This document shows, one piece after another, positions 2,844-60,457 of a stretch of DNA of 64,000 bases. Source of the stretch: Deltaproteobacteria bacterium (lineage in GTDB: Bacteria > Desulfobacterota > GWC2-55-46 > DRQE01). The stretch spans positions 13,418 through 77,417 of the forward strand of contig WGFM01000006.1 of assembly GCA_015492245.1 (NCBI GenBank), read 5' to 3'. Numbering within the stretch: position 1 is the stretch's first letter; the number at the start of each line of letters is the position of its first letter. Below the pieces are notes generated by a model. The model was not told the origin of the DNA, made no database searches, and saw only the letters and a program-made list of their open reading frames with translations. Made by a program: the position numbers and the translations under genes.

Positions 2844-2861
2844 CCCTGCAAACCTCCTTCT

Positions 2862-5327
2862 TTAACCATTTATATCTGTATACAGTGTTATGTATCTGTC
2901 TTTCAGTTTTCCGTCTATCTCAACAGCCTTCATAAAATAATACTTTGCCATCTTGCGGTTGCCAAGCCTCATGTAGGCCCGTGCAATGTTTACAAGTATG
3001 TTGCCATCCTCCTTGTCCAGATTATGTGCCATCTTGTAGTACTTGATGGCCCTTTCGTATCTTCTTTTAAGGTAGTATATATTGCCCATGTTGTTCAACA
3101 GTGCTGGCTTTCTATCAAGTTCCGGAATGCTTCTTGCCACTTTCAGCGCTTCGTCGAGCATTTCCTCCATGGCATAGAATCTTACCAGTCTAACAAGCCC
3201 CGGGGTTCCGAGCCCTTCGAGTTCTTTCCTTACATGTTGAAGCCTCTTTTTGCGGAACCTTTCGAGTTGCCTGGAAAGTCTCTTCTCTACAGCTCCTCTG
3301 TCCAGCTTTACAACAGCTGTTCTTGCTGGCAGGTTGGGGGCAAGGTAGAGGGCGCGTGCCTTTTCAAACTCCATTATCCTGGGCTTGTTGCTCAACCTCC
3401 TGTAGTTTTCCACACCTTTCTTCCATGCCTCGGTAAAGGATGCTCCCACAACTGTTGTCTCCACAGGTATCCATATGGCACCCCCATAGGGCACATAGCT
3501 TTCTTCTGGAAAGCCGAAGTATATGCTTTCATCTTCTGATACACCGGTATCAAACATGACGAACACATGGCCTGGCACATCCACAATGGCTGTCCTTATG
3601 CCCACGGCCTCGAGCAATGAGGAATAAAGGCTTGTAAGGTCATCGCAGTCGCCAACCTTTCTTACGATGGTCTCCCGTGGAAACTGCACAAAATCAACCA
3701 CCCCCTTGAGTCCAGATACAACGCTGTAGGGTGAATTCGGGTCCTCCATGTAGGATATGCCAAGAACCCCCATGGCCTCAAAGAGGGCGGCTGCCTTGAC
3801 GAGATTACGGCCGAGCCCTCTATCGCTGTAACCTACCACGGCATCTGTAGCAATATCAACTACAACAGGGTCCCTCGGTGTTATAAAAGAGGCTATCTTC
3901 CCCTTGTCATCCCACAGGAGGGCATGTTTCTCATACACATATATGGGACTGTTGAGAGTAACCACACCTCTCTTTCCCCTGTCCATATAGGTTACCTTTA
4001 TCTCGGACTGTATGAATGTGTTGTCTGTTATGTCGAGTATCTTGCTGTTGAAGACTATGTTCAGGGTTTTCTTTACAGTCTTTCCGGGTGGAAGCTTGCC
4101 TACGGTTATCCTTGTGGGATAGTCTATATACTTTTTGACAGCTATGGATATGGTTACATCACCCAGGGGGTTAGATGTTGTATTCTTAAGTACTATCGTT
4201 CCTGCAGGATGAATTGCATAGTATTTGTAGTTACTGGAGAAGACCTTATCGAAACTGACCTCTACTTTAAGTGGTGGCTCTGCACCCCCATGTTCTGAAA
4301 GCCGTTTCTTTACAGAGCCCATGGTGGTATGAAATCTATCGAACAGTTTCGCATAGGAGTTCTTTATGGCTGTCTTCCTGCCCATCGCATCGTCCACATG
4401 GATTATTCTGGTTCTGTCCCTGAGATGGGCAAGTGGTTTGAAGGGGTGCACACTGTAGAGGGTCATCTCAACCCTACCATCAAACTCCTTGAAGTTACCA
4501 CCGAGCACCTGCTCGCCTATCTTTATATCCTCTACAAGTTCCACAGCCACATCCACAGCCTTAAGTTTATCCTGTATCTTGTAGAACTCTCCCCTGCCAA
4601 GGTCCTCCACCCTGTATCCATGTGAGGCAAGCTCTTTTATAAAGTCCTTTCTATATCTATCGCTTCCCCTGTGGGTTATAACCCCTATCCTCAACCCCTT
4701 CTTTTCTGTTCTTGAGTCCACCTTCTCCTTGAGTCTTCCCGTATCAACAAACATCATGTAGATGGCACCATCTTCTGTCTGATGGATGGTCTCTCCTGTA
4801 AGCACATAGTCGGGGATATGTGGAAGCACCTTTTCTCTGAACAGTCTTATCTCCTCTGTGGTGGGCTCTTTTATGAGTTCATAGAAGGCCTGCTTGAGTG
4901 CCTTCATTTCCACCACCTTTGATACCACACCAAGACTTGTGCCACCTTTAGGCCTGTTCTCTACGAATACCACGGCCACCCCTCCAGGAGGCTTTTTGAG
5001 AAAAGGCAGCCTCACCCCTGATGAGCCTTTTATGGCAGCCATGGTAAGAAGGCTTATATGTTCACTTCTACCCTTGAGTCTTTCAATGGCTTCCATCTTT
5101 CTGCCTGTTCTGAAAAGTGAATAGGCGAGCGTAGCATTCAGAGCCGGGTTATCCTTCTCTTTGAGCAACTCTGTGGCAGAATCTGCTGCCTGCGCCCAGT
5201 TTCCGTCGAGAAGGGCTCTGGCAAATCTATCCTTTGTGTCTGTATCAGGGCTGGCTGGTATTGCCTGGGTTGTCCAGATAACGAGGAGAAAGGTTAAAGG
5301 GATTAGAAGCCCCCTTATTCCATGCAT
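2862..5327 (-). CDS. Secreted transglutaminase-like cysteine protease domain protein with C-terminal TPR repeats
   Basis: 821 aa with a signal peptide. The motif GDCDDLTSLYSSLLEAVGIRTAIVDVPGHVFVMFD is the Cys-His-Asp transglutaminase-like core. The C-terminus has TPR-like repeats (GNIYYLKRRYERAIKYYKMA..ARAYMRLGNRKMAKYYF). Confidence 0.6.
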   Translation of the reverse strand: MHGIRGLLIPLTFLLVIWTTQAIPASPDTDTKDRFARALLDGNWAQAADSATELLKEKDNPALNATLAYSLFRTGRKMEAIERLKGRSEHISLLTMAAIKGSSGVRLPFLKKPPGGVAVVFVENRPKGGTSLGVVSKVVEMKALKQAFYELIKEPTTEEIRLFREKVLPHIPDYVLTGETIHQTEDGAIYMMFVDTGRLKEKVDSRTEKKGLRIGVITHRGSDRYRKDFIKELASHGYRVEDLGRGEFYKIQDKLKAVDVAVELVEDIKIGEQVLGGNFKEFDGRVEMTLYSVHPFKPLAHLRDRTRIIHVDDAMGRKTAIKNSYAKLFDRFHTTMGSVKKRLSEHGGAEPPLKVEVSFDKVFSSNYKYYAIHPAGTIVLKNTTSNPLGDVTISIAVKKYIDYPTRITVGKLPPGKTVKKTLNIVFNSKILDITDNTFIQSEIKVTYMDRGKRGVVTLNSPIYVYEKHALLWDDKGKIASFITPRDPVVVDIATDAVVGYSDRGLGRNLVKAAALFEAMGVLGISYMEDPNSPYSVVSGLKGVVDFVQFPRETIVRKVGDCDDLTSLYSSLLEAVGIRTAIVDVPGHVFVMFDTGVSEDESIYFGFPEESYVPYGGAIWIPVETTVVGASFTEAWKKGVENYRRLSNKPRIMEFEKARALYLAPNLPARTAVVKLDRGAVEKRLSRQLERFRKKRLQHVRKELEGLGTPGLVRLVRFYAMEEMLDEALKVARSIPELDRKPALLNNMGNIYYLKRRYERAIKYYKMAHNLDKEDGNILVNIARAYMRLGNRKMAKYYFMKAVEIDGKLKDRYITLYTDING

Positions 5328-5328
5328 A

Positions 5329-7320
5329 TTATATTACACCTTCTGCCAGTATTTTCTGCATCTGCCGTTTTATTTGTGTGGCATCCACACCCTTGTTTTC
5401 TGCTATAAAGCGTGCCCTTACCAGCTCTATCAGGGATTTTCTAAGGTTGCCACTTTCTTCAAGTCTCAAGGCCTTCTGGAACAGTCGCTTTTCCGCTTCT
5501 GAGAAGATGGCCTTAAGCTTTCCTCCCATCTCTCTTACCACTTCGTCTTCGACGGTTTTAAGGAGTTCCGAGTCGGCAGGTAGATTTGGCAGCCTCTCCT
5601 CTATGTTTATGTCTCCTATGCTGACGCCCTCTCTTCCCTCAGAGGTTCTGGCCTCCTTCTTCTCCACCACATCCACATATATGATGTTACCGTTCGAGTC
5701 CACTACCCTCCATCCAACCGACACGCTGGCCACCTTTTTGTAGTGTGTAATCCTGTATTTCACATTTTCGAACACTGGTTCATCAATATACTTTGGTGGC
5801 TCACTGCCTGTCCTTCCCTTTGCGGCCCATTCCTCGTATGCAGGATTAAGTGCTTTTCTGGTGCCCACCTTTGCCCTCATGGTCTTGAAGTTGTTGAGAA
5901 CAGAGTTCTCCACCCTGTAATCCGTAACACTTCCTATGATCAGATAATCAGCCCCTATGAGTTTCAGTATATCCCTTCTCAGCTCTCCTCCCTGCAGTGC
6001 CTTCACCTCTTTCTCCTTTATTATTGCCTCCATGGCACTTCTCTCGAGTATCTTCACATCCTTTCCCAGTTCATTGTATACATAATAGAGTATCCGTGTT
6101 GCGAGCATATTGCCTGCGTCCACATTGTAGGAGGGTCCGCTGAAGGGTATTATCGCAAGGGTTGGATGGGAATATCTTTCGAGCTCTTCCTTCCAGCCAT
6201 CCTTGAGGGCTATTATCTCTGGATAATCGGGCTCTATCATTGAGACAACATCGACATAGAGGTATGCTATCTCCTTTTCACCATTCTGCCACTCCTCTTT
6301 TGCCCGCACAAACATCTCGTCAACCACCCTTTTTATCTCTCCTGCTGGCACGGAGACATGTCTTCTCTTCTCGTAGGGCAATCTCTTGATCAGGGATATG
6401 GCCTTAAGGAATGTTGCACCAGAAGAGAGCAGGAGGTCCTCTCTTGAGAACTCCATCCCTGCCCTTAGAAGCCTTTCTGCCCACATCTGCAGTGTGGTAT
6501 TTATCAATTCTGTTGCCTCTTTCGTATCGCTGTAGGCAATGGAAAGTTCGGCAAACCTCAAGGCGCGCTCGAAGTCTTCCTTCCTGAAGGCCCTCTTTGC
6601 CTCTTCAATGTGATACCTGTAGGAGTCCCTGTCTTTTGTCAATGCCAGTTCTTCTTTTACATCCCTGAAGGCAGGGTCTATCTCGTAGATGGTGCCGAAG
6701 ATCCTGTGTGCAACCTGCCATCTCTCTTCTTTCCTTGCCCTTAGACCCTCTTCATAGAGTGTGCTGAGAGTTCTTGCCCTGTATTCCTCAACAACTGTCT
6801 GCCTCGATGGATCAAGCCTTACAGCCTTCTCAAAAAGGACAAATGCCTCCTTAATCCTCTTTGCTTTCTCCTCTGTGTAGGCCTTTTCCATGAGGTCTCT
6901 TACTGTCTTAATGGTATTCTCTCTCTTCTTCTCTATCAGGGCTTTCACCCCTGTAATATCCACAGAGGGGTTTATCTTTACAACCTCATCAAGCTCTTTT
7001 TCGAACTGTGCGAGCCTTTCCATTGGCACGGGCTCTGGGGTATCTTCTACAGCCATCGTCAATGTCCTGAGCCTCTGGCCTGCGTACTTGCGGCTTGTCT
7101 CTTCCATCTTGTTGCAGAGAAAATCCGAAGGATTCTTTGCACAGAGCTCTTTGAGTATTCCATATGCGTCTGCGTATCTACCCTGCTTGATGGCACTGTA
7201 GTAGTCTTCCCTCTGTTTGAGCGCCACACAACTGTAGAGGAATGCCACAAGGGTTATAAGTATGATACCTCTCACCATGCTTTCTTCTATAAGCCCCCTG
7301 TCTCCTTTATATATATTCAT
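5329..7320 (-). CDS. Lipoprotein with long helical (TPR-like) N-terminal region and C-terminal CsgG/LpoB-fold domain
   Basis: 663 aa. Lipobox-like LVAFLYSC. The C-terminal half reads LAIIPFSG..NMLATRI..ADYLIIGSVTDY..VSVGWRVVD, which resembles the CsgG family. A 2-nt gap separates it from the downstream transglutaminase-like gene. Confidence 0.5.
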   Translation of the reverse strand: MNIYKGDRGLIEESMVRGIILITLVAFLYSCVALKQREDYYSAIKQGRYADAYGILKELCAKNPSDFLCNKMEETSRKYAGQRLRTLTMAVEDTPEPVPMERLAQFEKELDEVVKINPSVDITGVKALIEKKRENTIKTVRDLMEKAYTEEKAKRIKEAFVLFEKAVRLDPSRQTVVEEYRARTLSTLYEEGLRARKEERWQVAHRIFGTIYEIDPAFRDVKEELALTKDRDSYRYHIEEAKRAFRKEDFERALRFAELSIAYSDTKEATELINTTLQMWAERLLRAGMEFSREDLLLSSGATFLKAISLIKRLPYEKRRHVSVPAGEIKRVVDEMFVRAKEEWQNGEKEIAYLYVDVVSMIEPDYPEIIALKDGWKEELERYSHPTLAIIPFSGPSYNVDAGNMLATRILYYVYNELGKDVKILERSAMEAIIKEKEVKALQGGELRRDILKLIGADYLIIGSVTDYRVENSVLNNFKTMRAKVGTRKALNPAYEEWAAKGRTGSEPPKYIDEPVFENVKYRITHYKKVASVSVGWRVVDSNGNIIYVDVVEKKEARTSEGREGVSIGDINIEERLPNLPADSELLKTVEDEVVREMGGKLKAIFSEAEKRLFQKALRLEESGNLRKSLIELVRARFIAENKGVDATQIKRQMQKILAEGVI

Positions 7321-23525: not shown

Positions 23526-24005
23526 TTAGACCCGGTGGTCCTTCTTTATCACCATTGTGGCTGCAAGTCTGTCTCCTATTCGCATGCCATGATCATCCTC
23601 ATACATGGTGTAGACCTCGAGAAGGACCACCACGACCCCTGCCACCGCCACAAGGAGAATGCCCACATAGGGTATCCATCCCACCACCACACACAGGACA
23701 AAGGGGACGGCAAAGAGTGAGTTGCGCTTTATGGACTCAAGGAAATCACAGGCACTGCCATCCCTCAGGAGGCTTATGGTCATAAGCCCTGCAAGCCTTT
23801 TGCCCACACTCTGGCCGCCACTGAATCCATCGGATATCAGGATGTAGGTAACAGCTGCCACAGGGCCTGTAATTGCTGTGAGCTCAAAGAGAAATCCAGC
23901 AATGATGAAGTCCATAAGCTTTGCAAGGGCTCTGTCCAGTGGAGGAACCTTGCTGTAGGGTAGCTCACCGAATCCTTCTTCCAGTATGTCCTCTTCCATA
24001 ATCAC
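23526..24005 (-). CDS. RDD family membrane protein
   Basis: Three TM segments and a GQSVGKRLAGL motif typical of the RDD family. Confidence 0.55.
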   Translation of the reverse strand: MIMEEDILEEGFGELPYSKVPPLDRALAKLMDFIIAGFLFELTAITGPVAAVTYILISDGFSGGQSVGKRLAGLMTISLLRDGSACDFLESIKRNSLFAVPFVLCVVVGWIPYVGILLVAVAGVVVVLLEVYTMYEDDHGMRIGDRLAATMVIKKDHRV

Positions 24006-24225: not shown

Positions 24226-25374
24226 TTACTCACCCGAGGCCTTCTTCTTTCTCAGCTGGTGGGCGCGTTTGGCCTCTTCACTGGGCTGGTATGTGCAGAA
24301 GGGCTCTTCCTCCATGTAGTCTCCTGTGAAGGCATAGGCCCTTGCCCTGCAACCACCGCAGACACTACGGAACTCGCAGTAGCCGCATCTACCCTTGTAG
24401 TCGTCCCATGCACGCATCTCCTGGAAGACCTTCGAGGTGTGCCATATCCTGCTGAAGGGCTCCTTCCTTATATCTCCACACTCGACCTCCAGGAATCCAC
24501 ATATCTGCACCTTTCCCATATGGGACAGGAAGGCAAAGGTCTGCCCACCCATGCAGCCCTTGCTCATGGCATCGAGCCCATGGGTCTGCTTTGTAACGGT
24601 TCGGCCCTTCTTCTTCTCCCCCTGGCGAAATATCCTGTAATAATGTGGTGCACAGGTGGGTTTGAACTGTATGGGCACCTTCTCACGCATCTGGTAGAAC
24701 CACTCGAGGGTACGCTCGTACTCTTCAGGGGGTATCTCAAGGTGTTTCAGGTTTGCTCCCCTGCCAGTGGGCACAAGCAGGAAGGGATGATGTGCCTTTG
24801 CACCGAGTCTTATCACAAGCTCGAGTATCTCGGGCAGCTCATCTATGTTGTGCTTCGATATGGTTGTGTTCACCTGGAACTCAAGGCCCACCTTCTTGCA
24901 GTTCTCGATGGCCTTTATGACACTGTCGAAAGAGCCTGGCACCCGGCGGAAGTTGTCATGGGTCTCGGCTGTGGCGCCATCTATGGAGAAGCTCACCCGT
25001 TTTATGCCCACCTCGAGCATCTTTCTTGCGGCCTCCTCTGTTACAAGAAAACCGCATGGTGCCATGACCATCCTGAGACCGAGCTCTGTACCGTGGCGGG
25101 CTATATCCCATATGTCCTCTCTCAACATGGGCTCACCGCCGGTCATTATGATTATTGGGCTTGAAAATGATGCCACATCGTCGAGAAATTCAAGACACTC
25201 CTCTGTGGTGAGCTCATTGGGGTATGGACCAAAGCGTGCCGCCGCACGGCAGTGTATGCAATCGAGGTTACAGGAGCGTGTTAGCTCCCATGCTATGAGC
25301 CTTGGAAGCCATACTTTTCTACCTTCCTGCCCACCGTGGCCTCCATGTGTATGTTCAGCCTGTTTTTTGGTCAT
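24226..25374 (-). CDS. ahbD: Radical SAM/SPASM protein, AhbD/NirJ family (candidate heme synthase of the alternative heme pathway)
   Basis: CNLDCIHC radical SAM triad and a C-terminal SPASM Cys cluster (CGYCEFRSVCGGCRARAY). It is the last gene of a hemA-hemC-hemD-hemB operon that also has sirC. Confidence 0.55.
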   Translation of the reverse strand: MTKKQAEHTHGGHGGQEGRKVWLPRLIAWELTRSCNLDCIHCRAAARFGPYPNELTTEECLEFLDDVASFSSPIIIMTGGEPMLREDIWDIARHGTELGLRMVMAPCGFLVTEEAARKMLEVGIKRVSFSIDGATAETHDNFRRVPGSFDSVIKAIENCKKVGLEFQVNTTISKHNIDELPEILELVIRLGAKAHHPFLLVPTGRGANLKHLEIPPEEYERTLEWFYQMREKVPIQFKPTCAPHYYRIFRQGEKKKGRTVTKQTHGLDAMSKGCMGGQTFAFLSHMGKVQICGFLEVECGDIRKEPFSRIWHTSKVFQEMRAWDDYKGRCGYCEFRSVCGGCRARAYAFTGDYMEEEPFCTYQPSEEAKRAHQLRKKKASGE

Positions 25375-25390: not shown

Positions 25391-26365
25391 TTAACCGTTG
25401 AGTATCTTTGCAGCATCCTCTGCAAAGTATGTGAGTATGAGCCCCGCACCTGCCCTCTTTATGGAAATAAGGGTCTCCATCATGACCTTCTCTTCGTCTA
25501 TCCAGCCCTTCTGGGCTGCGGCCTTTATCATGGAGTATTCCCCGCTTACATTGTATGCGGCCACAGGATAACCCGTCTCTTCCTTGACCCTTCTTATTAT
25601 GTCAAGATAGGGCAGTGCAGGCTTTACCATCACTATATCTGCACCTTCCTCTATATCGAGCATGACCTCCCTTAGGGCCTCTTCACTGTTGGGAGGGTCC
25701 ATCTGATAGCCCTTTCTGTCCCCGAACCCCGGGGTGGACCCGGCTGCCTCCCTGAAGGGCCCATAGAAGGCACTTGCATATTTGGCAGAGTAACTCATTA
25801 TGGGTATGTGGCTGTAACCACTCTCATCGAGCACACCCCTTATGGCAGCCACCCTTCCATCCATCATGTCCGAGGGGGATACCATATCACAACCTGCCCT
25901 TGCATGGGACAGGGCCATCTCGCGCAGGACCTCAAGGGTGGCATCGTTGTCCACATCCCTTCCCTTTATGATACCACAATGGCCATGCGTTGTATACTCG
26001 CAGAGGCATACATCGGTTATGACCACCATGTCTGGTGCCTTGTCCTTTATCTCTTTTATTGCAAGCTGCACAGGGCCAGAGGGATCGAGGGCGGAACTGC
26101 CCACCTCGTCCTTGCGCTCTGGTATGCCGAAAAGCATTACCCCCGGGATACCGAGCCCTCTGGCCTCAAGCGCCCTTGAGGCTGCAAGCTCAGGGGAAAG
26201 CTGTGAATGGCCTGGCATGGAGGGAATGGGGTTTTCAACCCCTCTGCCGTATATGACAAAAAGGGGCAGTATGAAATCCCTGGGGGTGAGCACAGTTTCT
26301 GCAACCATCTCTCTTATGACCTTGTTCCTTCTCAACCTTCTCGGTCTGTACATGGGAAAACGCAT
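25391..26365 (-). CDS. hemB: Porphobilinogen synthase (delta-aminolevulinic acid dehydratase)
   Basis: 324 aa. YRPRRLRRN start, a Cys-rich metal site ([14 protein letters not shown]) and an active-site Lys region. Confidence 0.95.
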
Positions 26366-26367
26366 GT

Positions 26368-27918
26368 CTAACTGCCCTCCTTTCTTCTTGCATCTGTTCC
26401 GAAATACTCTGCTATGGCCCCTGCAAATGCAGGTATGGTGTATTCCCGTGGTACTATGTGAACCTCAAGCCCGAGGGAGCGTGCCCTCTCTTCTGTTATA
26501 GGGCCTATGCAGGCTATCTTCGTGTCTTCAAGTAGTTCTGTGAGTTCTCCCTTTCTGAATGCGGCAACGAAGTTGCTTACCGTTGAAGAGGATGTGAATG
26601 TTACGACATCCACCCTCTCTTTCCTGAGGAACTCCCTAAGTGAGGCCGCCTCCTTGCGTGGCCTCACCGTTCTATAGACAGGCACCACATCGATGCTTCC
26701 GCCAAGGTGTCTTATCTCCTCAGGCAGCACCTCTCTTGCCTTCTCTGCCCTGGGCAGAAGAAACCTCTTGCCCCCTATCCTCCTTCTACCCAGTGCCTCG
26801 AGGATGCCCTCTGCCCTGTACTCTTCTGGCACCACATCCACATTGAACCCCCTTTCTACGAGGGCACCCTCTGTGGCAGGCCCTATGGCACAGAGTTTCG
26901 CACAACCCAGTCTTCTTACATCGTAACCAAGTTTATAGAGCCTTTCGAAGAAAAACCTCACCCCGTTAACGCTGGTGAATATGATGTAGTCATAGACGGA
27001 AAGCCTTTTTATGGCCCTATCGAGGGGCTTCCATGTAACAGGTGCTGCCATCTTTATGGTGGGAAAGGTTATGACATCTGCGCCCATCTCCTCAAGAAGA
27101 CGGGAGAAGCGGCCTGCCTGCTCCTGGGTGCGTGTTACAACAATCCTTCTTCCAAAAAGGGGCCTTCTCTCATACCAGTTTAGTTTCTCTCTGAGCCCCA
27201 CTATCTCTCCCACAACTATTATGACAGGTGGTTTTATACCCTCTCTTTCCACCCTCTCTGCAATATCCTCAAGGCTTCCCGCTATACAACGCTGTTTTGC
27301 AAGGGTGCCCCACCTTATGACAGCAACAGGCGTGGCAGCGGGTCTGCCTTCTTCGATGAGTTTTTTCGTTATCTCCCCGAGTCTCTTCCACCCCATAAGG
27401 ATCACAAGGGTGCCATCCTTTATGGAAAGGCTCTCCCACAGCCTCTTTACGGCCCTCTTGCCCTCGCCTTCCTGTCCGGTAAGGAATGTAACAGAGGATG
27501 CATAGTCTCTGTGTGTAAGGGGTATCCCTGCATAGGCTGGCACAGATATGGCAGAGGTAACCCCTGGTACCACCTCGAAGGTTATGCCTTCTTCTACAAG
27601 TGCCAGGGCCTCCTCTGCCCCACGGCCGAATACGAAGGGGTCGCCACCCTTAAGCCTTACAACCCTCCTACCCCTCTTTGCATGGTCTATCATGAGCCCT
27701 GTTATCTCGTCCTGCTGGATGTGGCGGAACCTTCCCTTCTTGCCCACATATATCTTCTCTGTCCCCTTTCTTGCATATTCCAGCAGACGCTCGTTCGCAA
27801 GAAAGTCGTATATAACCACATCTGCCCTGCCAAGGGCCTCGATCCCCTTTAGAGTTATAAGCCCTGCATCTCCAGGGCCTGCACCTACAAGGTATACCTG
27901 TGGAGTATTCATAAACAT
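26368..27918 (-). CDS. cobA/hemD: Bifunctional uroporphyrinogen-III C-methyltransferase / uroporphyrinogen-III synthase
   Basis: The N-terminus [18 protein letters not shown] is a SUMT motif, and the C-terminal ~240 aa is HemD-like. Confidence 0.9.
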
Positions 27919-27927
27919 CTATATTAT

Positions 27928-29265
27928 CTACTCGCCTCCTTCTGGTTCCATGCGGAATGTCATCCTTAATCCACCAACCTCTATTGTGTCGCCATCCTGG
28001 AGGACCTTCTCGGCGAGCTTCTCTCCGTTTATCTTAAGGGAGCTGAGCCCACCTTTTCTTATAATCTTGTAAACATCTCTACCCTTTATTATTACGGCAT
28101 GCCTTCTGGCAACCAGTATGCCCTCCACCCTTATGTCTGCCTCTTCATCCTTGCCTATGGTGGTGATGCTGCCAAGCCTGTGGGTGGAGCCATCCTCAAA
28201 CTCGAGGTATGCCCTGCTGTATGCCTTCGATTCCTTTACCTCGAGAGCGGGCTCGAGCTCGAGCACATCTGTGCCGGATGGGCTCTGAGAGGTGGAAGAA
28301 CCCGCCTCTTCGGGATCCTCTTTCTTCTCTGGCATATGAAATCTCAGCGTGTAGCGCCTTATCTTTATCTCGTCTCCATCGAAGAGTTCCTTCGTCTCTA
28401 TCCTTATGCCCTTGAAGTATGTGCCGTTGGCACTGTCAAGGTCTTTTATCATGTATCTGTCCCCCTTCTTCTCTATTGTGGCATGTTCTCTCGAGACCCC
28501 TGCCTCCTCGAGCACAATGGCGTTGGTGGTCTCCCTTCCTATGGTGAGCCCTTCTCCCACAGGGAAACTTCCCCTCACAGCACCTTCCTCCAAAACATCC
28601 ACCCAGGCTCCTTCCATGCCTTCATCTTCCCTGTCTTTATAATAGGATGTAAGGCCACTATCGTTCAGCAGTATGGAGTCCTCTGCGGGCCTGACCTTTA
28701 TGTCTCTATATACCTCAACGGAGAGGGGTCTTCCAAGGGACTCCACATAAAGAAGAAGCCTTTCAAGGGGTGAACCCTCTGTGCCCACATCCTCTGGCAG
28801 AAAGAGGGATACAGGCTTACCCTTTATGAATATGACAAAGGATAGCCTGCCCTCTGCAAGAAGGCTCATTATAACATCCTCTTCCCCCTGCTCTATCCTC
28901 TTTACCATGTCTTCAAGTGCCACCTTGTCTGTGGAGAAACCCTCCGAGGGGGTGCGGCTGAGCATGACGAGGAAACAGAGGAGGAGCTTTTTATCTGCAG
29001 TGTAGAGGCTTACATCAGCCCTCTCTGCTTCTTTATACCACTGGAAGAACTCCTTTACCGATGTGGGCAGTCTGGTCCCGGCCTCTACAAGGGCTCCACA
29101 GTAGAGCCTCTCTGCTATAACGAAGAGGTAGCGCCTTTCTCTGTCCCTTCTTGCGAGCACATAGCCATCGGCAACATCCTGCCCGAGCCTCTCAATCAGT
29201 TCATCTATTCTCGAGAAGGGATAATCCTCTTCAGAAAACATCTTTTTTATGTAAGAGCCTTCCAT
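27928..29265 (-). CDS. Double FHA-domain protein with uncharacterised N-terminal domain
   Basis: Two FHA cores (GRETTNAIVLEEAGVSREHATIEKKGDRYMIKDLDSANGTY and IGKDEEADIRVEGILVARRHAVIIKGRDVYKIIRKGGLSSLKING). The ~220-aa N-terminal domain is unassigned. Confidence 0.65.
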   Translation of the reverse strand: MEGSYIKKMFSEEDYPFSRIDELIERLGQDVADGYVLARRDRERRYLFVIAERLYCGALVEAGTRLPTSVKEFFQWYKEAERADVSLYTADKKLLLCFLVMLSRTPSEGFSTDKVALEDMVKRIEQGEEDVIMSLLAEGRLSFVIFIKGKPVSLFLPEDVGTEGSPLERLLLYVESLGRPLSVEVYRDIKVRPAEDSILLNDSGLTSYYKDREDEGMEGAWVDVLEEGAVRGSFPVGEGLTIGRETTNAIVLEEAGVSREHATIEKKGDRYMIKDLDSANGTYFKGIRIETKELFDGDEIKIRRYTLRFHMPEKKEDPEEAGSSTSQSPSGTDVLELEPALEVKESKAYSRAYLEFEDGSTHRLGSITTIGKDEEADIRVEGILVARRHAVIIKGRDVYKIIRKGGLSSLKINGEKLAEKVLQDGDTIEVGGLRMTFRMEPEGGE

Positions 29266-29292: not shown

Positions 29293-30237
29293 CTATCCTG
29301 CCCCTTCACTGCCATAGAGTTCTTCGAGGACCCTGTCTGCTCCCATACTGAGGAGCCTTTCTGCAAGCTCCATGCCGAGCCCTTCTGCCCCATCAAGACT
29401 ACCCTCCGTGGAATCCTTATAGATCGTCCTGCCATCCACAGTGCCAACAAGGCCTGAAAGCCTGATTCTGCCTTCTTCTACCGTGGCATGGGCAGCTATT
29501 GGCACCTGGCATCCACCCTCGAGCCTTTCGAGAAAGGCCCTCTCAGCCCTTACACTTACAGAGGTCTCCCTGTGGTCAAGGAATGTCACAAGCTCGTTTA
29601 TGAACCCATCTGACACCCTTGTCTCTATACCCAGTGCACCCTGGCCTATGGCAGGCAGCATAACATCTTTCGGTATGTATTCGGTTACATGGTCCTCGAA
29701 GCCGAGCCTTTTCATGCCTGCACCTGCAAGAACTATTGCATCGTAGAGTCCCTGACGGAGCTTTCTTAAGCGGGTGTCCAGGTTTCCCCTGAGGGTTGAG
29801 ATTTTAAGATCCCTCCTTATGTGCCAGAGCTGACACTGCCTTCTGAGGCTTGATGTGCCTATATGTGCACCCTCTGGAAGCTCCTTAAGGGTGGTTCCAT
29901 CCTTTGATACAAGCACATCCCGTGGGTCCTCCCTCTCTGTTATGGCCTTAAGATGAAGCCCTGCTGGAAGGGCTGTGGGCACATCCTTCATGGAGTGGAC
30001 TGCAAGGTCAACCATTCCTGAGAGCAATGCCTCCTCTATCTCCTTTACAAAAAGCCCCTTTCCACCTATCTTTGCAAGGGGAGAATCGAGAATCTTGTCC
30101 CCCGTGGTCTTTATCTTCACGAGCTCAACACTGAGTTGGGGGTATCTTTTTTCAAGCTCTCTCTTCACCCATTCTGCCTGCCAGAGGGCGAGCTTGCTAC
30201 TCCGTGTGCCTATCCTTACAGTCTTTTCAGTTTCCAC
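29293..30237 (-). CDS. hemC: Hydroxymethylbilane synthase (porphobilinogen deaminase)
   Basis: 314 aa. VRIGTRSSKLALWQAEWV N-terminal motif and a dipyrromethane cofactor Cys region. Confidence 0.95.
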   Translation of the reverse strand: METEKTVRIGTRSSKLALWQAEWVKRELEKRYPQLSVELVKIKTTGDKILDSPLAKIGGKGLFVKEIEEALLSGMVDLAVHSMKDVPTALPAGLHLKAITEREDPRDVLVSKDGTTLKELPEGAHIGTSSLRRQCQLWHIRRDLKISTLRGNLDTRLRKLRQGLYDAIVLAGAGMKRLGFEDHVTEYIPKDVMLPAIGQGALGIETRVSDGFINELVTFLDHRETSVSVRAERAFLERLEGGCQVPIAAHATVEEGRIRLSGLVGTVDGRTIYKDSTEGSLDGAEGLGMELAERLLSMGADRVLEELYGSEGAG

Positions 30238-31531
30238 CAGCTTCCCTCGCCTTCTTTATTATTTCTTCCTCTTCAAGACCGAAGAGTTTGATGGCCGCCT
30301 CTATGAAGGTATCGCCTTCCACAGAGTGCGCCTCCTGCTTTATGCAGGTAACAGGGTTGTGGAGTATCTTCTTTACCATGGCCTGCGTCATGGCATCGAG
30401 GACCTTTCTTTCCCTGTCTGAAAGGTTCTTAAGTTGCGAGAGTGCCCTTTCAAGCTCTGCCTTTCTTATGCCCTCAAGCCTCTGCTGGAGTGCTATTATC
30501 GTGGGCACCACATCGAGGGACCTGACCCATCGGTATAGACCATCTATCTCTTCTGTCACTATGAGTTCTGCCTGCTCGGCCTCCTTGAGCCTTTCTTTAA
30601 GGTTTGCCTCCACCACGCCCTGAAGGTCGTCTATATCGAACACATAGGCATTGTCTATGTTGTTTACCAGCGGGTCTATGTTCCTCGGCACAGCAATATC
30701 TATGAAGAACATGGGGCAGTGCTTTCTTTCTTTCATCACGCCTGCCACATCCTCGGGCCTTATTATGAACTTTGGTGAGCCTGTGGATGCTATAACTATG
30801 TCTGTGTACTTCAGGTAATGGGAAAACTCTCTGAACATTATGGCCCTTCCCCTGAACTCTTTTGCAAGCTCCACCGCTCTCTCGTATGTCCTGTTGGCTA
30901 TTATGATTTCCTTTACCCCTGCCCCAAGAAGGCTCCGTGCCGAGAGCTCTGCCATCTCACCAGCACCTATGAGCATAACGGTTCTGCCTGTAAGCTCACC
31001 GAATATCTTCTTTGCAAGCTCCACTGCAACGGAGCTTACAGAAACGCTGGATGCACCTATGCGGGTCTCTGTTCTCACCCTTTTTGCAACAGAGAATGCC
31101 TTGTGGAAGAGCTTGTTTATGACCGTGCCTGCCGTATTGCTCTGGACAGCCATACCATAGGCATCTTTCACCTGCCCCAGTATCTGTGGCTCACCCATAA
31201 CCATGGAATCGAGCCCGCAGGCAACCCTGAAAAGATGCCTTGCACAGTCCTCACCTGCATGCACATAAAGATGGTCCTTTATATCATCATAGGGTATGTC
31301 GTGGTATTCGGAAAGAAACTTCTTTACCTCCCACACACCCTTTTCCATATCGTGCACCACACCTATGACCTCTACCCTGTTGCAGGTGGATATGATAACC
31401 GCCTCGTTTATGTTGTAATGGTTAACAAGCCTCCTGAGTGCACGAGGAAGCTCTTCTTCTCTGAAGGCAAACTGCTCCCTTATCTCAACAGGGGCTGTTC
31501 TGTGGTTGAGTCCTACAGTTACTATATTCAT
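30227..31531 (-). CDS. hemA: Glutamyl-tRNA reductase
   Basis: 434 aa. VGLNHRTAPVEIRE start, a catalytic Cys (STCNRVE) and an NADPH-binding GAGEMA. Confidence 0.95.
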   Translation of the reverse strand: MNIVTVGLNHRTAPVEIREQFAFREEELPRALRRLVNHYNINEAVIISTCNRVEVIGVVHDMEKGVWEVKKFLSEYHDIPYDDIKDHLYVHAGEDCARHLFRVACGLDSMVMGEPQILGQVKDAYGMAVQSNTAGTVINKLFHKAFSVAKRVRTETRIGASSVSVSSVAVELAKKIFGELTGRTVMLIGAGEMAELSARSLLGAGVKEIIIANRTYERAVELAKEFRGRAIMFREFSHYLKYTDIVIASTGSPKFIIRPEDVAGVMKERKHCPMFFIDIAVPRNIDPLVNNIDNAYVFDIDDLQGVVEANLKERLKEAEQAELIVTEEIDGLYRWVRSLDVVPTIIALQQRLEGIRKAELERALSQLKNLSDRERKVLDAMTQAMVKKILHNPVTCIKQEAHSVEGDTFIEAAIKLFGLEEEEIIKKAREAGGN

Positions 31532-31540
31532 CTCAAGCCC

Positions 31541-32359
31541 TCATCCCAGGAGCCCATGGGCTCCTCCTATCAAAAAATTTATAAAAAGAAACGAGCCGAG
31601 CAGCACCACAAAGGCTGCCACAGAGAATATGGCGGACTTTCTACCCCTCCATCCCGTGGTAAGTCTTCCATGCAGAAGTGCTGCATATAGAAACCATGTT
31701 ATAAGCGACCATATCTGCCTTGCCCCCCAGAACCAGTAGGTTCCAAAGGCATACTCAGACCATATTGCACCTGTTATTATTGCAAGTGTGAGAAGAGGAA
31801 ATCCATAGGTAAGACACCTGTAGTTGAGCTCATCGAGAATCTCAAGAGATGGTAGCACAAAATAAAGCCCTCTTATTTTGCGGCTTTTAAGGTAGCGTTC
31901 CTGTATAAGATACATTATGCCAAATATACATGCCATGGCAAAGAAGGCATTACCGAGGAACGCAAGCCCCACATGCACCGGCAACCAGTAGCTTTCGAGC
32001 ACCGGTGCAAGGGGCACAATCTCTTTGGGAAGGAAAGAGGCGGTTATAAGAAGAAACAATGCAAAGGGCGCCACAAACGCACCGAGCACCATCACCCTGT
32101 ACCTGTAGGAGAGCACTATGTAAAGAAGTATGGAGAGCCAGGCAAACAGTGTGAGGGACTCGTGCATGGTGGCGGCAGGAGTTCTGCCCGCCTCGAACCA
32201 TCGGCTGATGATGGTTATGCTATGGGCAACGAACCCACCATATACCATATACCCACCTGCCCTTGCAAACCCCTCACGATGAGTAAGTAGATATATTATG
32301 TAGATGATGGTTGCAAAAAAATAGAATGCCGCGGTTATATGGAAAAACAGAATGTCCAC
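31541..32359 (-). CDS. hemX: CcsA-like cytochrome c assembly family membrane protein (HemX-type, as in hemAXCDB operons)
   Basis: 272 aa with 8 TM segments and a Trp-rich WFWGARQIWSLITW segment of the CcsA/CcmC family. Confidence 0.65.
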   Translation of the reverse strand: MDILFFHITAAFYFFATIIYIIYLLTHREGFARAGGYMVYGGFVAHSITIISRWFEAGRTPAATMHESLTLFAWLSILLYIVLSYRYRVMVLGAFVAPFALFLLITASFLPKEIVPLAPVLESYWLPVHVGLAFLGNAFFAMACIFGIMYLIQERYLKSRKIRGLYFVLPSLEILDELNYRCLTYGFPLLTLAIITGAIWSEYAFGTYWFWGARQIWSLITWFLYAALLHGRLTTGWRGRKSAIFSVAAFVVLLGSFLFINFLIGGAHGLLG

Positions 32360-32363
32360 CGAT

Positions 32364-33038
32364 TTATGGCTTTCTTTCCTCTATCTTTATGCCCAGTTTT
32401 GAAAGGGTCATGTCAAGCCCTGTAACCTCTCTTAAAAGAGCGTTTATGTTTCTTCTGTCTCCTCGCCTTATGTATTCCAGCAATGGCGATTCCAGAAGCT
32501 GCTTGAATATCCTTAACTTTTTATCATCATTCGGTTTTTCTTTCAACATCATCTTTCTCACTGCCCCCACAATCTCCACAACCTTTGCGAACTCTTCTGG
32601 CAGAAACTCCTCGATCCTTTCACGAAGCCACCTTGCGGTGTAAGGGCTGCTGCCAGATGTGGATATTGCTATGGTTACATCGCCTCTCCTTACAACAGAG
32701 GGAACTATGAAGTTGCAGAGCCCGGGCCTGTCAACAACATTTATAAGCAGCCCCTCCTTTTCTGCCTCACCGAAAACCTTCTCGTTGAGCGATTGAGAAT
32801 CCGTGGCACTCACAACCAGGAAGGCACCCTCAAGGTCTCCACCACGGTATCTTCTGTTTATATGCTCTACAAGCCCCTTTCTTTTGAGCCCCTTAAGGCG
32901 CTCCGTAAGGGCAGGGCTTACAACCACCACATCCGCACCACACTCAAGTAGTGCCAGCACCTTCCTTTCGGCAACCCTTCCGCCACCAACCACCACACAT
33001 CTTTTGCCCTCTATATTGATGAAAACAGGATAAAACTT
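32364..33038 (-). CDS. sirC: Precorrin-2 dehydrogenase / sirohydrochlorin ferrochelatase (siroheme synthase N-terminal domain type)
   Basis: VVVGGGRVAERKVLALLECGADVVVVSP Rossmann motif, at CysG-N/Met8 family length. The likely start is the internal Met MKFYPVF. Confidence 0.8.
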   Translation of the reverse strand, partial: KFYPVFINIEGKRCVVVGGGRVAERKVLALLECGADVVVVSPALTERLKGLKRKGLVEHINRRYRGGDLEGAFLVVSATDSQSLNEKVFGEAEKEGLLINVVDRPGLCNFIVPSVVRRGDVTIAISTSGSSPYTARWLRERIEEFLPEEFAKVVEIVGAVRKMMLKEKPNDDKKLRIFKQLLESPLLEYIRRGDRRNINALLREVTGLDMTLSKLGIKIEERKP

Positions 33039-33230
33039 CATATCAACTAAGATTATAACCTTCTTATATATCAAAAACCATTAATTTCTTATTAAAAGGG
33101 CTTAAAGCACAAAATATCCTTTTTTCGAGGACAAACAGGCAGCTTCTGTCTCCATATATGGCCTGCCAAACATCCTTGACCACCTTCTGGTTAACTGTTA
33201 GAATTAGAAAAACTATTCATTTCTTTTACG

Positions 33231-34949
33231 GTGTGGAAGGGGATGGAGAAGCGCTGGAAGATTAGTCCTGCCAACGATGTGGTCAAGAAGAGGTTAGAAG
33301 ATGAGCTTAACATCCTTCCTGTAACCGCAGAGCTTCTGGTAAAAAGAGGTATGGCAGAGCCCGAAAGGGCATATTCCTTCCTCTCACCTGATCTCAAGGA
33401 CCTGTATGACCCTTTCTCCATGAAGGACATGGACAGGGCGGTAGAGCGTATCCTCCGTGCCATCCAGAGGGGGGAGAAGATATGCATCTGGGGAGACTAC
33501 GATGTGGATGGCACCACGGGCACCGCACTCTTCTACCTGTTCTTCAGAGAACTGGGCATAGATACAGGCTGCCATATACCCCACAGGCTGAAAGATGGCT
33601 ATGGACTCAATGCAGAGGGGGTAAAAAAACTCCATGCAGATGGTGTGAACCTTGTCATAACGGTTGATTGTGGTATATCCAGCCATGAGGAGATAGGGCT
33701 TGCCCGCTCCCTGGGTATGGACTGCATAGTGGTGGACCACCATGAGGTTCCACCCCGCATACCCCCTGCATGTGCGGTGCTGAACCCCAAGCAGAAAGAC
33801 TGCGACTATCCCTTCAAGGCCCTTGCAGGCGTTGGGGTTGCCTTCAACCTTGTAATAGCCATAAGGGCAAGGTTGCGCAAGCTTGGCTGGCACATGGAGC
33901 TACCGAACCTCAAGCGCTATCTCGATGTGGTAGCCATAGGGACCGTTGCAGATGTGGTGCCCCTCGTGGATCAGAACAGGATCCTTGTAAGCTACGGGCT
34001 CAAGGAGCTTGCATCAACCAGAAGGGTGGGGCTGGCAAGCCTCATGGATGTGGCAGGCATAAGCGGGCTCAAACCCACTGCAGAACAGATCGCCTTCCAG
34101 CTTGCACCCCGGATAAACGCCTCCGGCAGGATGGACAGTGCAGACACGGCTCTCAGGCTTCTTGTAACCCGGGACCCACAGGAGGCAAGAAAACTTGCAG
34201 GGCTTCTCAACAGAGAGAATTCGAAACGCCAGAGTGTGGAAGAAAGGATTCTGCGGGAAGCCGTCTCGATGGTAGAAGAACCCCTTGAAGACAGGGCCAT
34301 GGTGCTTGCCCGTGAAGGCTGGCACCCGGGTGTCATAGGTATAGTCGCCTCGCGCCTGATGGAAAGGTTTACAAGGCCTGCCATACTTCTCTCCATAGAT
34401 GGTAATACCGTGAAGGGCTCTGCACGGGGAACCGCTGGTTGCAATATCATAGATACACTCCATAGATGCGAGGCATACCTTGAAAAATACGGGGGACACC
34501 GCTCGGCAGCTGGCCTCACGCTCAAAAGAGAGAACCTCGATGCATTCAGAAAAGAATTCATAGGGCTTGTGAACTCCACCCTTACCGCTGAAGACCTGGT
34601 TCCACTGGTAGAGCTGGATGCACAGGTTACACTGGATGAACTCAAGCCACGCCTTGTGGATGAGATAGAAAGGCTGTCTCCCTTTGGCCACAAGAACGAA
34701 AGGCCGCTTCTCTGTATTATGGGGGCAAACATACTCCATACCGAAGTGGTGAAGGACAGACACCTGCGGGTGATGATAAAACACAACGGCACACTGCAAA
34801 ACGGCATAGCCTTCGACATGGCAGGATACCATCCCATAAGGGAGGGGCTTTTCGACATAGCATTCTACCCTTACATAGATGACTGGCAGGGGCTCAGAAA
34901 AGTAAGGCTTCGTATAGAAGAGCTGAAACCTTCCTTGCAAACATCTTGA
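33231..34949 (+). CDS. recJ: Single-stranded-DNA-specific exonuclease RecJ
   Basis: DHH motifs (IWGDYDVDGTTG, DHH) and a DHHA1 domain. Confidence 0.9.
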   Translation: MWKGMEKRWKISPANDVVKKRLEDELNILPVTAELLVKRGMAEPERAYSFLSPDLKDLYDPFSMKDMDRAVERILRAIQRGEKICIWGDYDVDGTTGTALFYLFFRELGIDTGCHIPHRLKDGYGLNAEGVKKLHADGVNLVITVDCGISSHEEIGLARSLGMDCIVVDHHEVPPRIPPACAVLNPKQKDCDYPFKALAGVGVAFNLVIAIRARLRKLGWHMELPNLKRYLDVVAIGTVADVVPLVDQNRILVSYGLKELASTRRVGLASLMDVAGISGLKPTAEQIAFQLAPRINASGRMDSADTALRLLVTRDPQEARKLAGLLNRENSKRQSVEERILREAVSMVEEPLEDRAMVLAREGWHPGVIGIVASRLMERFTRPAILLSIDGNTVKGSARGTAGCNIIDTLHRCEAYLEKYGGHRSAAGLTLKRENLDAFRKEFIGLVNSTLTAEDLVPLVELDAQVTLDELKPRLVDEIERLSPFGHKNERPLLCIMGANILHTEVVKDRHLRVMIKHNGTLQNGIAFDMAGYHPIREGLFDIAFYPYIDDWQGLRKVRLRIEELKPSLQTS

Positions 34950-46288: not shown

Positions 46289-47647
46289 GTGGCAACTCTC
46301 GATTCTTCAAAGAGGCTTGCCTATGGCTGGCTCGCCTATGCGGTGGGTTCATTGATATTTGCGGGCATATTCGCCCTTATGGTTGCACTGGCAAGGACAC
46401 CCTACATAAAGGACATGCTGCCGGGGGGGGATTACTTCTACATAGCCCTTGTGGGGCATGTCATACTTGCGGTGGTCATATGGTTTCTTGCCTTCGAGGG
46501 GTTTTTGTGGCTACTTACCTCTGCCATGGATACATCCACCCCTGTGATAAGCCCTCTTGTTGGCTGGTTCTCGCTTGTGCTTTCGGCAGGGGGGACAACC
46601 CTCATAGTAATATGCGCACTTTTGGGGCTTGGCTATCCAGAGCTTGCAAACTATGTGCCTGTCATAATCCATCCACTGTTTTTCACAGGGCTTTCTCTGT
46701 TTACAGCAGGCATTATACTTATCCTTTTGAATACCTTTCTCACCCTTGGGAGCGCACTCGGAAGGGGTGCATCATTTCCCATCGTAACCCGTGGTATGGC
46801 CGTGGCAGCGGTTACCGTTACAGTCGCCCTCGTCTGTTTTTTCCTTGCAGGTTACCTGCAGTATACTCGCAAGGGGTTCTTCGACTTCGAAAGGTTCTTC
46901 TGGGGTGGTGGGCACATACTGCAGTTTGCAAATACCATGGCGATGGTCGTCAGCTGGCTCTATCTGGTAAAGATAGTCTTTAGAAAAGATGCCATAGGAT
47001 TGAGGCTGGGCACCGGGGCCTTTCTGTTCTATCTTGTCTTTGTGCTACCCGCACCGGTTATATACTTCCTGTACGATACAGCCTCATACGAATACAAGAC
47101 CGCCTTCACCATGCTCATGCAATGGGGCATAGGGCCTCCAACGGCATTCTTCCTAATAGCCATACTGTATCTTCTCTACCGATACAGGAACAAGGGGCTG
47201 CCCTGGGCAAGGCCGGGGTTTTCTTCCCTTGTGCTCTCGGTCGCCATATTCCTTCTTGGCGGGCTTATAGCACTGGATATAAGCGGGGTGAACACCAAGA
47301 TTCCAGCGCACTACCACTGTGCAATAGGGGCTGTAACAATAGCATTCATGGGGCTTTTCTACGAGGTGGTTCCCTTCTTCGGGCTTCGTATATACAGTGA
47401 GAAGATGGCCCGCATCCAGCCCTACCTCTACGGGCTGGGTATACTGCTATTTGCCATGGGACTCTACATAGCAGGCTGGTATGGTGCCATGCGAAAGGTC
47501 TATGGACAGGACCAGGCCTTCGAAAGCGTGGGAGAACTCGTGGGAATGGGTATAATGGGGGTGGGCGGGCTCGTTGCCATAGCAGGTGGAATATACTTCG
47601 TCCTGAATGCACTGCTCACATTCCTTGGGGGCAGAAGGAATACTTGA
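46289..47647 (+). CDS. 12-TM membrane protein with heme-copper-oxidase subunit I-like His motifs (incomplete ligand set)
   Basis: GTG start with AAGGAGG 8 nt upstream. Motifs VGHVIL (helix II-like His), FWGGGHIL (W..GH as in HCO helix VI) and HYHCAIGAVTIAFMGLFY (compare COX1 helix X H-x-H..GAV..MGGF). No adjacent H-H pair is present. Confidence 0.45.
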   Translation: MATLDSSKRLAYGWLAYAVGSLIFAGIFALMVALARTPYIKDMLPGGDYFYIALVGHVILAVVIWFLAFEGFLWLLTSAMDTSTPVISPLVGWFSLVLSAGGTTLIVICALLGLGYPELANYVPVIIHPLFFTGLSLFTAGIILILLNTFLTLGSALGRGASFPIVTRGMAVAAVTVTVALVCFFLAGYLQYTRKGFFDFERFFWGGGHILQFANTMAMVVSWLYLVKIVFRKDAIGLRLGTGAFLFYLVFVLPAPVIYFLYDTASYEYKTAFTMLMQWGIGPPTAFFLIAILYLLYRYRNKGLPWARPGFSSLVLSVAIFLLGGLIALDISGVNTKIPAHYHCAIGAVTIAFMGLFYEVVPFFGLRIYSEKMARIQPYLYGLGILLFAMGLYIAGWYGAMRKVYGQDQAFESVGELVGMGIMGVGGLVAIAGGIYFVLNALLTFLGGRRNT

Positions 47648-60440: not shown

Positions 60441-60457
60441 AGGAGGTATTCTGGATT

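Follow-up and report, generated by a model that had tools for sequence, protein, structure and literature searches.

The 64,000-nucleotide (nt) stretch of a Deltaproteobacteria bacterium genome analyzed here (contig WGFM01000006.1; hereinafter the window) codes for a 445-amino acid (aa) protein with two FHA domains, whose gene is embedded in an operon for the early steps of tetrapyrrole synthesis, between hemC and a cobA/hemD fusion gene. The earlier note on this DNA had described such a two-FHA protein within a tetrapyrrole operon, and the open reading frame (ORF), the Pfam matches and the neighboring genes agree with that description. We give an even chance to the proposal that the protein works in the cytoplasm as an adaptor or regulator of the FHA type that specifically serves the early tetrapyrrole pathway. 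By analogy, it would most likely be a phospho-switchable protein of the GarA/OdhI kind that regulates tetrapyrrole enzymes or acts as their scaffold; which enzyme it targets, in which direction it acts and that it switches intramolecularly are elements that we infer.

The ORF of the gene starts with an ATG, ahead of which lies a Shine–Dalgarno-like stretch (AGGAGAGAGGA), and its product is laid out as follows:

27928..29265, minus strand: the FHA gene, coding for the 445-aa protein (N-domain, FHA1, linker and FHA2), as seen from the ORF, its translation and two matches to Pfam FHA.
28627..29265, minus strand: N-domain, aa 1–213, an internally duplicated, family-specific α/β module (AlphaFold2, AF2, model and hhalign of the halves).
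28336..28608, minus strand: FHA1, aa ~220–310, with the canonical phosphothreonine (pThr)-binding residues (alignment and AF2 model).
28216..28335, minus strand: linker, aa 311–350, Ser/Thr-rich and disordered (pLDDT <50 for aa 313–348).
27946..28215, minus strand: FHA2, aa ~351–440, a highly conserved FHA fold with a degenerate phosphate-binding site (alignment).

The Pfam FHA model (PF00498) matches in two stretches (E 3.1e-29, 101.7 bits against a cut-off of 20.7), and the full-length AF2 model (pLDDT 80) displays three folded parts and one disordered linker. Both FHA domains are modeled as β-sandwich FHA folds (pLDDT ~80–90), with Foldseek matches to GarA, OdhI, EmbR and FhaA at target-normalised TM values of 0.8–0.88 and a root-mean-square deviation (rmsd) of 1.4–2.5 Å. 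A pThr site was recognized by a Gly-Arg in the β3–4 loop, a Ser-x-x-His in the β4–5 loop and an Asn in the β6–7 loop. FHA1 possesses all of these residues (G242-R243, S257-R258-E-H260 and S277-x-N279-G280), which are kept across the family and the sampled outgroups, except where FHA1 itself is lost (P0020); its nearest solved sequences are the Rv1747 FHA, EmbR and GarA. FHA2, whose best sequence matches in the PDB are GarA and OdhI, fails the same criterion with its G-K ... A-R-R-H ... N-G motif: the Ser position is Ala in the window protein and Ala, Gly or Pro, but never Ser, in 20 of the 20 aligned members, while the Arg position is taken by Lys in 17 of these, Arg in 2 and Asn in 1. This degeneracy is common to most outgroups in the wider family, with one subgroup having a canonical second FHA domain. 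Thus, the two phosphothreonine-binding FHA cores of the earlier note reduce to one, as FHA1 has the canonical residues and FHA2 has lost the phosphate-binding Ser. An alternative assignment to secretion systems (type III YscD or type VI TagH-Fha) was rejected, as TagH reaches 53.8 bits, below its cut-off of 120, and there are no secretion genes nearby; the Pfam Yop-YscD_cpl and TagH matches are generic FHA similarity.

The genes that flank the FHA gene are, in order of transcription:

32364..33074, minus strand: sirC, a precorrin-2 dehydrogenase of the CysG N-terminal type and the first gene of the operon (Pfam NAD_binding_7 and Sirohm_synth_M; NCBIfam cysG_Nterm).
31541..32359, minus strand: a CcsB/ResC-like membrane protein in a HemX-like operon position (Pfam Cytochrom_C_asm; NCBIfam ccsB, 214 bits against a cut-off of 187.6).
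30227..31531, minus strand: hemA, glutamyl-tRNA reductase (GluTR), overlapping the start of hemC (Pfam GlutR_N, Shikimate_DH and GlutR_dimer).
29293..30237, minus strand: hemC, porphobilinogen deaminase, directly upstream of the FHA gene (Pfam Porphobil_deam, E 1.3e-88).
26368..27918, minus strand: cobA/hemD, a fusion of uroporphyrinogen-III C-methyltransferase and uroporphyrinogen-III synthase, directly downstream of the FHA gene (Pfam TP_methylase and HEM4; NCBIfam cobA_cysG_Cterm, 308 bits against a cut-off of 185).
25391..26365, minus strand: hemB, porphobilinogen synthase (Pfam ALAD, E 7.8e-151).
24226..25374, minus strand: ahbD, a radical SAM/SPASM heme b synthase (NCBIfam TIGR04545, 524 bits against a cut-off of 500).

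All are co-directional and tightly packed, giving the order sirC–ccsB/hemX-like–hemA–hemC–FHA–cobA/hemD–hemB–ahbD, with divergent recJ (33231–34949, plus strand) delimiting the operon upstream and an RDD-family gene (23526–24005) downstream. Only 27 nt separate the hemC stop from the FHA ATG and 9 nt the FHA stop from the cobA/hemD ATG; the gaps of 28 and 10 nt given earlier are each off by one. The ahbD ATG at 25374 lies 16 nt past the hemB stop and has an AGGAG upstream. Promoter and terminator scans returned zero sites in either gap around the FHA gene, with counts across the whole 10 kb being at the level of shuffled sequence, and Rfam found no RNA family in the 64-kb window. Co-transcription of the FHA gene with the early tetrapyrrole pathway forms part of the explanation that we favor, and our confidence in it is evenly poised. 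As judged from gene content, the operon serves the siroheme-dependent (Ahb) heme route, since AhbD (TIGR04545) is encoded together with CobA and SirC-type genes; ahbA, ahbB and ahbC were not found in the stretches examined.

The N-terminal part of the protein defines a domain family of its own. Residues 1–216 show no Pfam family (best E 0.21) and no sequence relative in the PDB, in line with the earlier description of ~220 unassigned residues. Modeled alone by AF2 (pLDDT 90.6, pTM 0.86), the N-domain comprises two similar helix-plus-three-strand units, and as these halves match each other in hhalign (E 5e-5, probability 67%), it is an internal duplication. A profile of this domain run against 1.84 billion representative proteins recovered 137 clusters, 24 of them below 1e-30, and FHA domains are present in 88 of the 100 family members scanned; where a source names these proteins, they are almost always called 'FHA domain-containing protein'. 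The 445-aa protein has ~20 full-length homologs at 40–90% identity. One family member, P0105 (674 aa), combines a zinc ribbon, a Hanks kinase, the N-domain (aa 378–553) and an FHA domain in a single protein, a fusion that ties the N-domain family to kinase signaling.

Two possible affinities of the N-domain were considered. DNA sliding clamps (the DnaN/PCNA fold) are its top Foldseek matches in the PDB, and were rejected with TM values of 0.16–0.20 and rmsd of 14–17 Å; the repeated strand-helix-three-strand motif is the sole feature that they share with it. The second candidate is DUF4388/PATAN (PF14332), which does not match the window N-domain at E≤10. It does give sub-threshold matches in 5 of 100 N-domain relatives (best whole-protein E 3.9e-5), and the two that were placed (P0074 aa 119–168 and P0076 aa 37–81, at ~22 bits, below the gathering score of 25) fall one in each half of the N-domain. 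Hence, kinship with PATAN might be pursued as a lead, not as an assignment.

The invariant residues of the N-domain include Y54, F72-F73, D90, K92, C96, F145, G148, P192 and D195. The Cys and the aromatics among them are what one would look for if the duplicated N-domain bound heme or a tetrapyrrole intermediate and reported the status of the pathway to an enzyme or to a kinase/phosphatase pair, which would make the protein a functional analog of the plant GluTR-binding protein. The HemX-like membrane protein encoded in the same heme operon would suit such a ligand sensor, and heme-binding feedback regulators of GluTR are known (PMC6597238). Nevertheless, the N-domain has no recognizable heme-binding motif or fold and also occurs in family members outside hem contexts, and Cys96 lies within a helix predicted at aa 91–102, where the model suggests that its role is likely structural. 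We therefore consider sensing of a ligand very improbable.

The regulator proposed above draws support from the conservation of the position of the gene, which was traced through genome and metagenome scans, look-ups of exact proteins and tblastn searches with the operon proteins of the window. The place in the hem operon is kept in ~14 independent lineages, across which the FHA proteins share 40–90% identity. With both flanks visible, the gene lies between hemC and cobA/hemD in loci L001, L003, L004/L026–L028, L006, L007, L025 and L030; in L002 and L037, also with both flanks visible, a kinase and a PP2C phosphatase gene stand between hemC and the FHA gene, with cobA/hemD following. Where one flank is visible, cobA/hemD follows the FHA gene in L008, L009, L010, L031, L036 and L077, and hemC precedes it in L005, L031 and L078. 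All carriers are metagenome-assembled genomes (MAGs) or metagenomes, and those with informative titles are assigned to Deltaproteobacteria or Thermodesulfobacteriota. The earlier note had allowed for a recent insertion, with the gene absent from this place in close relatives; instead, relatives down to 40% identity keep it there. A nucleotidyltransferase/HepT-like (MNT-HepT) toxin–antitoxin pair lies between cobA/hemD and hemB in L026 (13152–13791), and also in L027 and L028. Thus, the operon tolerates insertions elsewhere while the FHA gene keeps its place.

The gene is under purifying selection across every folded domain of its product. Over the whole gene, the ratio of nonsynonymous to synonymous substitution (dN/dS) amounts to 0.15 in the comparison with L001 and 0.17 in that with L025; among the regions, FHA1 has the lowest value (0.07–0.10), followed by FHA2 (~0.10) and the N-domain (~0.15), with the linker under relaxed constraint (pN 0.14–0.33). 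Two lineages have lost FHA1 (P0020/L030–31 and P0051/L077, the latter with a long acidic low-complexity insert in its place), and in both the N-domain and FHA2 stay in the hem operon. Because these are the parts that lineages without FHA1 retain there, we read the N-domain plus FHA2 as the candidate pathway-linked effector, and FHA1, the linker and the kinase/PP2C pair, by the same observation, as a putative removable input.

A concrete connection to Ser/Thr phosphorylation is seen in the relatives. A CHASE2–Hanks kinase (~840 aa) and a PP2C phosphatase (~245 aa) are encoded directly upstream of the FHA gene in L002, L005, L037 and L078, and L008 and L009 have the same arrangement as far as their contigs reach. 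The pair follows hemC directly in three of these six loci (L002, L005 and L037). In L078, a 728-aa protein without a Pfam match (2270–4456) separates hemC from the CHASE2 kinase and may be an extra component of the cassette. The kinase motifs (GxGxxGxV, HRDIKPAN, DFG and SPE) and the PP2C motif DGMGGH are intact in L002 and L005, the loci checked for them. Family members in outgroups stand outside the hem operon: L032 codes for a CHASE2-kinase, a PP2C, a small FHA protein and an N-domain–FHA protein, L029 for a PP2C and a small FHA protein followed by an N-domain–FHA protein, and L034 for a TPR-kinase downstream of the N-domain–FHA gene. Since outgroup members thus occur in kinase contexts, the family appears to be a component of kinase pathways that was recruited into the hem operon. 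The simplest history suggested by these gene orders would be the recruitment of a kinase–PP2C–FHA cassette between hemC and cobA/hemD, with the kinase and PP2C later being lost in several lineages, including that of the window.

The linker of many members carries a motif, DLA-x-(Q/E/K)-T-(I/V)-(Y/F)-(A/S)-(E/K), amid otherwise variable sequence. In the form DLAxQT[IV][YF]AE, it is present in 6 of 6 kinase-adjacent genes as against 1 of 8 others (the L004/L026 group), for which the hypergeometric probability is ~0.002 at face value, the lineages being related to each other.

The following mechanism would fit these observations. The effector part, formed by the duplicated N-domain and the degenerate, highly conserved FHA2, is proposed to bind one or more enzymes of the pathway. 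Its likeliest targets, on the position of the gene alone, would be HemC and CobA/HemD, which the adjacent genes encode and which act at the node leading from hydroxymethylbilane via uroporphyrinogen III to precorrin-2; GluTR is an alternative target, since Stk1 and Stp1 of Staphylococcus aureus act on the GluTR of that organism, GtrR. FHA1 would serve as the phospho-input, reading pThr written by the membrane-bound CHASE2-sensor Hanks kinase and erased by the PP2C. In relatives with an operon kinase and phosphatase, the conserved Thr of the linker (DLAxQTIYAE) is the probable acceptor, and its phosphorylated form might dock intramolecularly onto FHA1, thereby switching the protein in the way known for the phosphorylated N-terminus of GarA/OdhI. 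In the window lineage, the protein could be driven by a kinase encoded elsewhere, as the still canonical and strongly constrained FHA1 suggests, or could be constitutive.

A phospho-independent role for the same effector parts would read the persistence of the N-domain and FHA2 after the loss of FHA1 in another way. Under it, the two domains tether HemC to the HemD half of CobA/HemD, thereby channeling the unstable hydroxymethylbilane to uroporphyrinogen III and then to precorrin-2, with FHA1 and the kinase being accessory, or vestigial in the window lineage. The gene is situated exactly between those for the makers and consumers of hydroxymethylbilane, the kinase and the linker motif are missing from the window, and FHA2 is very conserved although its phosphate-binding Ser is gone; furthermore, the enzymes targeted by GarA need not be phosphorylated for GarA to bind them, and GarA–KGD complexes are among the Foldseek matches. 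However, the window FHA1 has all its pThr-binding residues, and no other part of the protein has so low a dN/dS, both of which speak for a phospho-input that is still in use. Also, most organisms, other sulfate reducers included, make uroporphyrinogen III without any such scaffold. On balance, a tether of this kind seems quite improbable to us.

A number of observations weigh against the phospho-switchable regulator. For the window itself, tblastn with the kinase and PP2C of the relatives gave no match in its 64 kb, Pfam detected neither in another 27 of its ORFs, among them the ten largest without an assignment, and the linker motif is missing from its protein, as it is from those of L025 and L001. 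Thus, the Hanks kinases and PP2C phosphatases that the earlier note recommended looking for are found upstream of the gene in six related loci, and none was found in the 64-kb window; its proposed link to Ser/Thr phosphorylation holds for those relatives, while the window is without kinase, PP2C and linker motif. The correlation of motif and kinase is not corrected for phylogeny, and is hence a lead, not a test, and GarA-like regulation of enzymes would here follow from gene context and that correlation only. On the side of the enzymes, no clade-specific conserved Thr or extension stood out when HemA, HemC and CobA/HemD were compared, their conserved Thr residues appearing within the enzyme folds, and 0 of 100 family members scanned had the N-domain fused to a tetrapyrrole enzyme. 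The carrier genomes are all MAGs of uncultured bacteria. In L005, what comes after the FHA gene is nadA, on the opposite strand, instead of cobA/hemD, and L020 holds only a frameshifted remnant of the FHA2 end (3685–4010), directly after hemC, with a sigma-factor-like gene next to it on the other strand. This remnant reflects either gene decay at a rearrangement breakpoint or an artefact of MAG assembly; as nothing else of the gene is kept in L020, the gene would be dispensable in at least one lineage. As a separate observation, HemC has a C-terminal tail (...E[TS]xxER.NAPEV) in L002, L003, L004 and L020, not in the window, that shows no correlation with the kinase.

Several of these points would sit well with a protein that merely hitch-hikes in the operon, namely a general adaptor of a Hanks-kinase pathway with targets unrelated to tetrapyrroles, whose ancestral kinase–PP2C–FHA cassette happened to land between hemC and cobA/hemD and was retained on account of the transcription of the site and the difficulty of excision without polar effects. 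The loss or truncation of the gene in L020 and the break of the operon after it in L005 are in its favor, as are the outgroup family members that adjoin kinases outside hem operons and the fact that no sequence feature ties the protein to a Hem enzyme among the fusions, enzyme Thr residues and tails examined. Yet the position has been held in ~14 lineages to 40% identity despite the loss of the kinase and PP2C, the loss of FHA1 and insertions elsewhere, and the spacing is tight enough for translational coupling. Over such divergence, one would expect a neutral passenger to have decayed or relocated in more cases, and we regard a hitch-hiking adaptor as rather unlikely.

The GarA/OdhI comparison on which the phospho-switchable regulator is modeled has clear limits. 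GarA of Mycobacterium and OdhI of Corynebacterium are FHA regulators of 2-oxoglutarate dehydrogenase, GDH and GOGAT that are switched through phosphorylation by PknG and PknB. Like these, the window protein would be a small cytoplasmic FHA protein, for which direct action on metabolic enzymes is proposed here, and they are its closest solved FHA sequences and structures. In the loci of the relatives, the input would likewise come from a Hanks kinase, and the candidate phospho-motif lies in a disordered segment beside a canonical FHA domain, which suggests the same intramolecular off-switch. In contrast, the NCBIfam OdhI model (NF041660) gives 76.8 bits, below its cut-off of 200, so that the window protein is not a GarA/OdhI ortholog. 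Its N-domain, FHA, linker and degenerate FHA differ from the short N-terminal ETTS tail and single FHA of GarA/OdhI, the candidate phospho-site falls between two FHA domains and is missing from the window protein, and the context is one of tetrapyrrole rather than tricarboxylic acid cycle and glutamate metabolism.

Cassettes of a Hanks kinase, a PP2C and FHA proteins are well known from PknA/PknB–PstP–FhaA/FhaB of M. tuberculosis and PpkA–PppA–Fha1 of the Pseudomonas type VI secretion system. The three-gene row of L002, L005, L037, L078 and, to the contig ends, L008/L009 resembles these. It differs in being set in a siroheme/heme operon instead of cell-division or secretion loci, and in the CHASE2 sensor of its kinase, while the window has the FHA gene alone.

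Control of tetrapyrrole synthesis in bacteria is known mainly via GluTR stability, heme feedback and transcription. To our knowledge, an input by protein phosphorylation has so far only been glimpsed, in the Stk1/Stp1–GtrR system of S. aureus. There, Stk1 phosphorylates GtrR and Stp1 removes the phosphate again (Leasure 2023, as treated in the review PMC10991733), offering a precedent for a Ser/Thr kinase and PP2C acting on the first committed enzyme of heme synthesis, to which a parallel is proposed here; likewise, the HemX control of GluTR abundance in S. aureus has a counterpart in the HemX/CcsB-like membrane protein of the present hem operon. The S. aureus system nevertheless has no FHA adaptor, its kinase is global and encoded elsewhere, and its heme pathway is coproporphyrin-dependent rather than siroheme-dependent. 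A literature search for FHA with hem, ahb or siroheme turned up no account of an FHA gene lying within either a hem or an ahb operon. Thus, the arrangement does look undescribed, as the earlier note had surmised, while a Ser/Thr-kinase input to heme synthesis as such has precedent.

The dedicated, non-enzymatic tuning of tetrapyrrole flux through enzyme binding has a conceptual parallel in plants, where FLU is a post-translational protein regulator of tetrapyrrole entry. The GluTR-binding protein is another such regulator (PMC6597238). Both act in the eukaryotic plastid, have unrelated folds (TPR and split-barrel, respectively) and lack a phospho-reader domain. For the N-domain, PATAN offers a comparison as an α/β module fused to a signaling domain with a protein-binding output (bioRxiv 10.1101/2021.06.11.447907). 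The N-domain is an α/β module of similar size on a signaling domain, with a protein-binding output proposed here, whereas PATAN has been described alongside REC domains and with type IV pilus targets, and is not known from FHA proteins or in connection with biosynthetic enzymes.

The operons of the relatives vary at other points. Between hemA and hemC, a 60-aa zinc-finger-like ORF (Pfam BSD2_CRD, with a faint Anti-TRAP match) is present in L026 (8695–8877), L027 (8141–8323) and L028 (3044–3226), with no equivalent in the window; BSD2/DnaJ-type Cys-rich domains are chaperone-like, and the protein could be a further small factor associated with GluTR or HemC. At the same place, L003 (4692–5852) codes for a 207-aa ORF of no known identity and an inorganic pyrophosphatase. 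A Chlor_dismutase-family (ChdC/HemQ-like) gene follows ahbD in L026 (16148–16867), L028 (10497–11216), L030 (13262–13987) and L031 (6074–6799), it being unusual for one operon to code for both a heme synthase of the radical-SAM type and a ChdC-like protein; in the window, ahbD is directly followed by the RDD-family gene and not by a ChdC-like gene.

Elsewhere in the window, a heme-copper oxidase subunit I-like gene (46289–47647, plus strand; Pfam COX1, E 2.9e-24) occurs in a presumably anaerobic lineage, and its product may use the heme that the operon supplies. A deoxyhypusine synthase-family gene on this bacterial contig (35066–36136, plus strand; Pfam DS, E 2.8e-95) probably codes for an enzyme of the homospermidine synthase type. 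Two CsgG-family proteins (curli-type secretion channel) are encoded at 5329–7320 (minus strand) and 60434–61873 (plus strand), and one of the genes adjoins that of a large TPR protein (2862–5327).

Taken in full, the proposal is of a transmembrane pathway encoded by the heme operon of an uncultured Thermodesulfobacteriota clade, in which a CHASE2 kinase, a PP2C and a phospho-switchable N-domain/FHA effector would exert signal-dependent, post-translational control of flux at the hydroxymethylbilane/uroporphyrinogen III/precorrin-2 node, with the window version being a kinase-uncoupled derivative; we hold this fuller picture tentatively, at somewhat less than an even chance. If true, the protein would be the first FHA-mediated regulator of tetrapyrrole synthesis, using a previously uncharacterized duplicated effector domain, and the principle of GarA/OdhI, namely FHA proteins as direct regulators of enzymes, would extend to a new pathway and a new phylum. 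The finding would also offer a first functional handle on an unannotated domain family with 137 cluster representatives, nearly all fused to FHA. The anaerobes concerned depend on multi-heme cytochromes and siroheme sulfite reductase, and for them such a pathway would constitute a ready and genetically compact system in which to study how Ser/Thr signaling gates the supply of precursors of heme, siroheme and B12.

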